From NCBI RefSeq assembly GCF_041248615.1, contig NZ_CP158426.1: DNA of 64,000 bases. One strand, 5' to 3'. The stretch is from Escherichia coli (GTDB taxonomy: Bacteria > Pseudomonadota > Gammaproteobacteria > Enterobacterales > Enterobacteriaceae). Both the position numbers and the translations under genes were made by a program. The notes beneath the pieces were generated by a model, which saw only the letters and a list, made by a program, of their open reading frames with translations, was not told the DNA's origin and ran no database searches. How positions within the stretch are numbered: position 1 is the first letter of the stretch; every line of letters begins with the position of its first letter. Of the stretch, positions 58,216 through 58,727 are shown piece by piece.

Positions 58216-58727
58216 TCAACGAGGTTTTCTGTCTTTTCGTCGGTCATTCAGCATCATTAAACGGGTCTCTGCCTCTTTCTGTTCCTGTGGTGTCACTTCC
58301 CCGCACGGCTGACCGTTCAGGTTGTAACGGGCGCCACCTGCTATTAACGCACGGTAATAGCGCGGAGACTGCACATAAGACGCCACTGCTGCATGTAATG
58401 TACCAGCGCCAAACGCCAGTTCTCGGATGGCGATATCCTGTATCAGGTCGTCAGGTATCCCCACTTTAAGTGGTTTTGTTTTTTTCCCGGTTGAATGACT
58501 CAGGCCAGAGTTCCACAAGACGAATAATGCGCTTACGGTTTTTGCTCTGGCGTTTTGTCATGTCGCCACGGTGTTTTATCAGCAGGTTTCTGTTTCTCGT
58601 TCAACTGTGGTATCTGGTCACCGGCCTTCATTTTGTATGCTGTGTCCGTTTTATCCTGCAGCGGCGTTGCCGGTGATTTACTGAAAATACCCTGCGGTTT
58701 ACGGTTAATGGTCAGAGTTACCATCAA
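58216..58727 (-). pseudogene. Hypothetical gene, possibly frameshifted (ORFs 58533..58727 and 58216..58518 in different frames)
   Basis: Two adjacent protein-like minus-strand ORFs separated by 14 nt in different frames; no family recognised. Confidence 0.3.

Follow-up and report, generated by a model that had tools for sequence, protein, structure and literature searches.

Positions 58216..58724 on the minus strand of the window, by which we mean the whole 64,000-nucleotide stretch of Escherichia coli DNA analysed here, very probably hold the remains of a gene for a ProQ/FinO-family RNA-binding protein, a pseudogene that is carried on an island and disrupted by two small frameshifts. In its ancestral state the gene product had about 169 aa, made up of a 55-residue N-terminal extension rich in K, Q, T and P, a minimal FinO domain and a short basic tail. 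The broken gene is already known, with public annotation listing it as a pseudogene: PGAP/RefSeq has a single 'ProQ/FINO family protein; frameshifted' in NZ_CP033635 (100% identical) and in SMS-3-5 (99.9%), which maps to window positions 58216..58724 and takes in a 64-aa ORF from its second Met. The main value of the analysis is one of correct annotation, that of one pseudogene and not of two or three hypothetical small genes.

Locus layout and domain identity

The ORF listing gives two minus-strand ORFs with TTG startcodons in different frames, one of 100 aa (58216..58518) and one of 64 aa (58533..58727), separated by a spacer of 14 nt (58519-58532, sequence GCGCATTATTCGTC), exactly as they had been described from the sequence alone. 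As ORFs of such size are common by chance (the 7 kb around them contain 92 with 30 aa or more), this layout by itself means little, and it is on the basis of homology that both ORFs are taken as real. A third-frame ORF of 31 aa (58466..58561, minus strand, MTKRQSKNRKRIIRLVELWPESFNREKNKTT) bridges the two, sharing sequence with the end of the 64-aa ORF and with the start of the 100-aa one, and stops beside a homopolymer of seven A residues (A7, 58479-58485) which sits within the 5' part of the 100-aa ORF.

The 100-aa ORF matches positions 23-107 of the Pfam ProQ/FINO profile PF04352 with an E-value of 4.9e-17 and a score of 62.3 bits, while fusion of the 31-aa and 100-aa ORFs by deletion of one A, giving a repaired form of 114 aa, yields 75.8 bits over profile positions 5-107; both scores lie above the PF04352 gathering cutoff of 27 bits. 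Since the fusion raises the score and extends the coverage of the profile, the 31-aa piece represents the missing first helix of the FinO domain. The 64-aa ORF alone had no match in the Pfam and NCBIfam libraries. Joining the 64-aa and 100-aa ORFs directly via a single frameshift was considered and rejected, as this skips the RIIRLVELWPESF helix (ProQ profile positions 5-23), and the three-piece model both scores better and fits the intact homologs.

The repaired protein also matches the sequences of solved structures in the PDB, i.e. ProQ (5nb9, E = 1.5e-10), NMB1681 (3mw6, 3.5e-9), RocC (7rgu, 7.5e-8) and FinO (1dvo, 1.1e-6). The sequence-only reading had put the function down as unknown, but these matches and PF04352 make it known at the family level, that of a ProQ/FinO-domain protein. 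With the more specific NCBIfam models, the score was 50.8 bits for ProQ (NF003434, equivalog cutoff 127), with only profile positions 6-114 of 205 aligned, and 50.5 bits for FinO (NF010317, subfamily cutoff 136), both below the levels for ProQ or FinO proper. Judged by these profile scores, the protein is a member of the ProQ/FinO family that is the orthologue of neither ProQ nor FinO. In the window the FinO domain is not encoded by an uninterrupted ORF, but is split over two frames at the A7 run, and as PGAP also flags the gene as frameshifted, the window copy is classed as a pseudogene of the family and not as a functional member.

Full-length relatives and the N-terminal extension

A protein database search with the fused form showed that most relatives are full-length proteins of 158-185 aa, found in E. 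coli, Shigella, Salmonella and Citrobacter, which cover 97-100% of the query at identities down to 55% and which all carry PF04352. The sequence-only reading had named a lack of homologs, and of conservation in related islands, as what would speak against a gene at this place; hundreds of homologs were found, and these share the island setting. In a 178-aa Salmonella ProQ/FINO protein, residues 1-59 are the counterpart of residues 2-56 in the 64-aa ORF (E = 4e-17), and the ORF also aligns to a Citrobacter homolog (E = 1e-8), with both alignments ending exactly at the residues TPWRH. Beyond this point the 64-aa ORF has eight more residues, which are out-of-frame read-through. The motifs M-x-TLTINRKP, QDKT and QKP..TPWRH are conserved in the protein alignment, as is the in-frame junction TPWRH-MTKRQ between extension and domain. 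The dN/dS values among alleles were 0.19-0.40 for the extension (long-linker alleles) and mostly 0.16-0.35 for the domain, with 0.62 for the highest pair, and from these values both parts evolve as coding sequence.

Aligned in this way, the pseudogene consists of three minus-strand pieces. The first (58560..58724), comprising codons 1-55 in the frame of the 64-aa ORF, is the N-terminal extension (MVTLTINRKPQGIF...QKPADKTPWRH), which aligns to the N-termini of the E. coli, Salmonella and Citrobacter full-length relatives. It is followed in that frame by the tail DKTPEQKP and a stop (58533..58559), which is out of frame and not ancestral coding sequence in this frame, homology to the full-length relatives having ended at residue 56. 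The second piece (58481..58561, MTKRQSKNRKRIIRLVELWPESFNREK), in the frame of the 31-aa ORF, is the start of the FinO domain with its first helix, as indicated by the gain in Pfam score and by its alignment to ProQ residues from about 3 to 28; the ATG at 58559-58561 is the startcodon of the 114-aa form annotated in relatives. The third piece (58216..58479, TKPLKVGIPDDL...NDRRKDRKPR with a TGA stop), in the frame of the 100-aa ORF, is the rest of the FinO domain and the basic tail, and is the part identified by the PF04352 and PDB sequence matches.

Two lesions and their repair in silico

The lesions were mapped using DNA alignments with the intact long-linker alleles L010 (168 aa) and L013 (169 aa, from GCA_021458745.1), and with other relatives. 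At the first site L010 and L013 read TGGCGACATATGACA, whereas the window and alleles L004, L014 and L015 read TGGCGACATGACA, which corresponds to the loss of one AT from a CATATG repeat (minus strand, about 58559-58562, with the exact position inside the repeat being ambiguous) and leaves extension and FinO domain in different frames. The second site is the A7 run (58479..58485, minus strand), where the intact genes read GGGAAAAACC and the window reads GGGAAAAAAAC; in the wider context this is CCGGGAAAAACCAAAACC in the intact genes and CCGGGAAAAAAACAAAACC in the window, i.e. a C-to-A change plus one additional A. Here the DNA alignments with intact alleles are joined by alleles L014 and L015, which have six A residues (A6). 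When both lesions are undone in silico, a clean 510-nt ORF of 169 codons results (509 nt + 2 - 1 = 510 nt), which aligns end to end with the 168-169-aa homologs and whose protein is 88-91% identical to them.

One gene carrying a frameshift had been suggested for this interval in the sequence-only reading, and of this the single ancestral gene stands, in line with the one RefSeq pseudogene, while the single frameshift gives way to two lesions and a third piece of 31 aa. The break also moves: it had been placed at the 14-nt gap, where a homopolymer or slippery sequence was to be looked for, but the search of 58519-58532 for a homopolymer, slippery motif or lesion found none, and the lesions lie instead on either side of it, at about 58559-58562 and at 58479-58485.

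The lesions, and the order in which they arose, can be read directly from these sequence comparisons. Loss of AT from the CATATG repeat first cut the extension from the domain, so that two ORFs remained, one of 63 aa upstream and one of 114 aa for the FinO domain, which begins at the internal ATG. The C-to-A change then lengthened the original run of five A residues (A5) to A6, and the gain of one further A produced A7, putting the 114-aa ORF out of frame after 27 codons with a stop 4 codons on, hence a 31-aa product. Both lesions are of the slippage type. By standard translation no FinO domain is made from the window copy, which at most gives the 63-64-aa N-terminal peptide and the 31-aa peptide, and from these lesions we infer that the window locus is non-functional. 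Trace expression of the 114-aa form could still occur via rare transcriptional slippage on A7, or via reversion to A6.

Distribution of alleles and order of changes

Next we compared the locus with 5,426 complete E. coli genomes. The 801-nt region has matches in 1,199/5,426 of these, the exact 75-nt stretch with A7 is present in about 347/5,426, originating from many laboratories, and the AT-less junction is found in about 370 complete E. coli genomes. As L004 lacks the AT and yet retains the original A5CC, the AT loss came first. The intermediate predicted from this, the same allele with A6, was searched for and was found exactly in two genomes, at a second locus in NZ_CP033635 (L014) and in APEC IMT5155 (L015). 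In both, PGAP calls an intact 114-aa ProQ/FINO CDS and a 63-aa hypothetical protein; their domains differ from that of the window by the single A only, and the L014 product is identical to the predicted repair. NZ_CP033635.1 carries the A7 copy and the near-identical A6 copy (L014, 5172856-5173363) in two paralogous islands at different chromosomal sites, and up to 5 copies of the family are found per genome.

The window lineage has four amino acid substitutions: L-to-S at the core position equivalent to ProQ C24, P-to-T, R-to-H at the equivalent of ProQ Arg58, and M-to-I. Since the L014 domain differs from that of the window only by the one A, these substitutions predate the A7 frameshift. 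The changes in this lineage (4 nonsynonymous, 3 synonymous) are too few to prove relaxed selection. Decay after A7 was considered as the source of the R-to-H change and rejected, as the in-frame A6 allele already has the His; the change may instead go back to a relaxation of selection that followed the AT loss.

Three annotated layouts were seen in relatives drawn from the whole identity range: one fused CDS of 158-159 aa (L007 and L008), a 'hypothetical protein' of 57-63 aa that overlaps a ProQ/FINO CDS of 114 aa which is intact (L004 and L005), and frameshifted pseudogenes (the window allele and L003, the latter with a further 1-nt deletion). When alleles L004, L005, L006, L014 and L015 are set against L007, L008, L010 and L013, it can be seen that the extension was severed from the FinO domain by different lesions across E. 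coli alleles, in the region equivalent to window positions of about 58540-58600. One such lesion is the AT loss, and another, separate from it, is a 5-nt CTGCT duplication leaving the upstream stop over the ATG as ATATGA. Domain-only forms of 114 aa are common in the databases. The repeated severing could represent either recurrent decay or selection for the short form.

Alternative readings of the A-run and of the split gene

The A-run might be a functional switch, either by phase variation between A6 (in frame, ON) and A7 (out of frame, OFF), or by transcriptional slippage or +1 frameshifting on A7, giving a controlled low level of the 114-aa FinO-domain protein. If there were a mutational ON/OFF switch for an island FinO-domain RNA chaperone, what looks like a 'pseudogene' would be a phase-variable regulator of the RNA biology of the island in its OFF state, and the locus does have some of the expected features: the lesion affects a homopolymer close to the ORF's 5' end, A6 and A7 alleles that are nearly identical both occur, even within the single genome NZ_CP033635, and the A7 allele is widespread. 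However, among the assembled genomes A7 outnumbers A6 by about 347 to 2, and the two forms occupy different chromosomal loci, in keeping with a mutation that arose once and then spread with the island. Diverged relatives are in frame with A5CC (GGGAAAAACC), and a recoding signal is thus not conserved at this site; a +1 shift is needed to restore the ORF, but A_AAA_AAC is a -1 motif. Programmed -1 frameshifting at A_AAA_AAC, which we also considered, leads to a stop 15 codons later (PGKKQNHLKWGYLTT followed by the stop) and is a dead end. With regard to slippage of RNA polymerase, A7 is shorter than the runs of about 9 or more at which this is efficient in E. coli. Furthermore, the gene had already lost its N-terminal extension, and it has a His at the RNA-binding position equivalent to ProQ Arg58. 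Taken with the distribution of alleles, these observations make a switch improbable, whether by phase variation of the run or by slippage or recoding on it, and favour the two-lesion pseudogene.

It is still harder to maintain that the ORFs are independent small genes, the second option of the sequence-only reading. In its favour, the PGAP annotation of L004, L005, L014 and L015 has a hypothetical protein of 57-63 aa as a separate gene ahead of the 114-aa ProQ/FINO CDS, the lesion behind the split varies between alleles, and L005 has its upstream stop overlapping the ATG (ATATGA), which is compatible with translational coupling. These points have to be weighed against the continuous ORF which the parts form in most relatives, including the diverged ones in Salmonella and Citrobacter, and against the conservation of the TPWRH-MTKRQ junction in frame. 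The 64-aa ORF ends in eight residues of out-of-frame read-through, and the 100-aa ORF of the window has only a TTG startcodon with no visible Shine-Dalgarno sequence, and does not include the first helix of its domain. Independent genes are thus very unlikely at this locus, and the pieces are better read as parts of one broken gene. Finally, although homopolymer runs are a classic site of sequencing and assembly errors, an artefact is practically out of the question, since the 801 nt of the window recur at 100% identity in at least 16 complete genomes, which come from independent projects, the AT-less junction recurs in its about 370 genomes, and the presence of the exact A7 stretch in about 347 genomes makes A7 a real allele.

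Comparison with known ProQ/FinO-family proteins

The closest known counterparts are the ProQ/FINO proteins of E. coli CP4-type islands (WP_021572006.1 of 159 aa and WP_000258199.1 of 158 aa, with WP_141115997.1 and WP_000166955.1 as 114-aa forms), which represent the same gene at the same position, facing the UCP030791/YagK-YfjJ-like gene and downstream of AlpA. The repaired window protein is 84-91% identical to these, and its domain equals WP_000166955.1 save for the extra A. The window copy is unlike these relatives in having both the AT loss and the A7 frameshift, and in encoding no FinO domain.

With FinO of F-like plasmids the island protein shares its general plan: a basic and probably disordered extension stands N-terminal to a FinO domain, and the gene is carried by a mobile element. 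FinO is of 186 aa, against 169 aa for the repaired island protein, and is located on F-like plasmids, whereas the island gene is chromosomal and was never on plasmids in the E. coli set; unlike FinO, it is also without an identified FinP/traJ-like partner. The chromosomal E. coli ProQ (5nb9) is the best sequence match among solved structures, but has a linker and a C-terminal Tudor-like domain, both of which are absent from the island protein, which has an N-terminal extension instead and ends shortly after the FinO domain. NMB1681 of Neisseria meningitidis (3mw6) and RocC of Legionella (7rgu) resemble the island protein in their minimal FinO domain, which has a similar size and short basic tails, although these come from other lineages and genomic contexts, and are intact with known RNA ligands, while the window copy is broken.

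The RNA-binding surface of ProQ includes residues K35, R58, Y70, R80, D41 and D82 (PMC7192607). The equivalents of ProQ K35, G37, D41, Y70 and R80 are present in the window allele, while that of R58 is a His, with Arg in all relatives aligned (12/12), and that of D82 is an Asn, both in the window allele and in some intact relatives. By analogy with FinO, FopA, RocC and ProQ (reviewed in PMC9977716), the intact family most likely binds RNAs consisting of a hairpin with a 3' tail, and would chaperone, promote or protect an antisense or sRNA interaction for the island. A literature search on the island ProQ/FINO genes found only mentions in island inventories (PMC6174562) and no functional study. 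The intact family of 158-185 aa thus has a fixed place in CP4-type islands of E. coli, Shigella, Salmonella and Citrobacter without a described RNA partner or function, and it is this uncharacterised family, together with the repeated severing of its extension, which would make a worthwhile target, and not the broken copy.

Genomic context of the pseudogene

The pseudogene is located in a CP4-type island beside ynjB, and the window is collinear with NZ_CP033635 at 97-99.97% identity. Other cargo of the island includes YagK/YfjJ-Gp2 ('Rep-like') genes, AlpA, a GTPase, antirestriction and JAB proteins, and a CbtA/YeeU toxin-antitoxin pair. All loci examined share one arrangement, in which the ProQ/FINO gene and a 182-aa UCP030791/YagK-YfjJ-like gene are convergent, their stops lie 1-18 nt apart, and AlpA comes next. 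In the window this convergent neighbour lies at 57650-58198 on the plus strand, and is annotated by PGAP as hypothetical, as YagK/YfjJ domain-containing or as UCP030791 family; it has PF27752 in a precomputed annotation, and a Pfam scan of a longer ORF of 264 aa found nothing. As its stop is only 17 nt from that of the pseudogene, the two transcripts probably overlap at their 3' ends.

The 10-nt self-complementary sequence ACAGCGCTGT occurs twice in 58168-58208 (both strands), where a stable hairpin of -30.8 kcal/mol (z = -3.7) is predicted. This begins 8 nt past the stop of the pseudogene, over the last codons of the convergent UCP030791/YagK-YfjJ-like gene. It was considered as a conserved RNA element and rejected, as it has no U-tract and no compensatory changes and overlaps the coding end of the convergent gene; an A-to-T change in several relatives breaks one of its pairs and is uncompensated. 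Scans for RNA genes were negative, both with Rfam over the whole window and for tRNAs, and a promoter and terminator scan of 57900-59300 found nothing beyond the expectation from shuffled sequences.

Upstream of the pseudogene, an unannotated stretch of about 385 nt (58730-59112) is 89% conserved with the loci L010 and L011, which hold an intact 168-aa gene, and did not align with L012 and L013 in the same blastn run. Beyond this is a run of gene debris (window positions 59127-60418), mapped from the PGAP annotation of an identical genome: a frameshifted IS1 transposase that also has an internal stop (59127..59818), a C-terminal fragment of a transketolase (about 59878..60054) and part of a transposase (about 60243..60418). 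The whole neighbourhood is in decay, and the broken ProQ/FinO gene adds to the evidence that this CP4-type island is decaying.

Further along, a YadA-like trimeric autotransporter adhesin with YadA anchor and stalk (61200-62801, plus strand) has internal repeats of about 100-114 nt (62021-62317), and about 320 nt of it (61338-61658) are unaligned to the otherwise 99.9% identical NZ_CP033635. Two segments of the window, at about 52349-53673 and at about 33080-35832, are absent from the collinear NZ_CP033635. Each consists of insertion sequences, in one case an IS3-family element whose orfA and orfB overlap, the classic layout for -1 programmed frameshifting, and in the other a block with IS3-family and IS256-family (Mutator) transposases, inserted between gdhA and topB.
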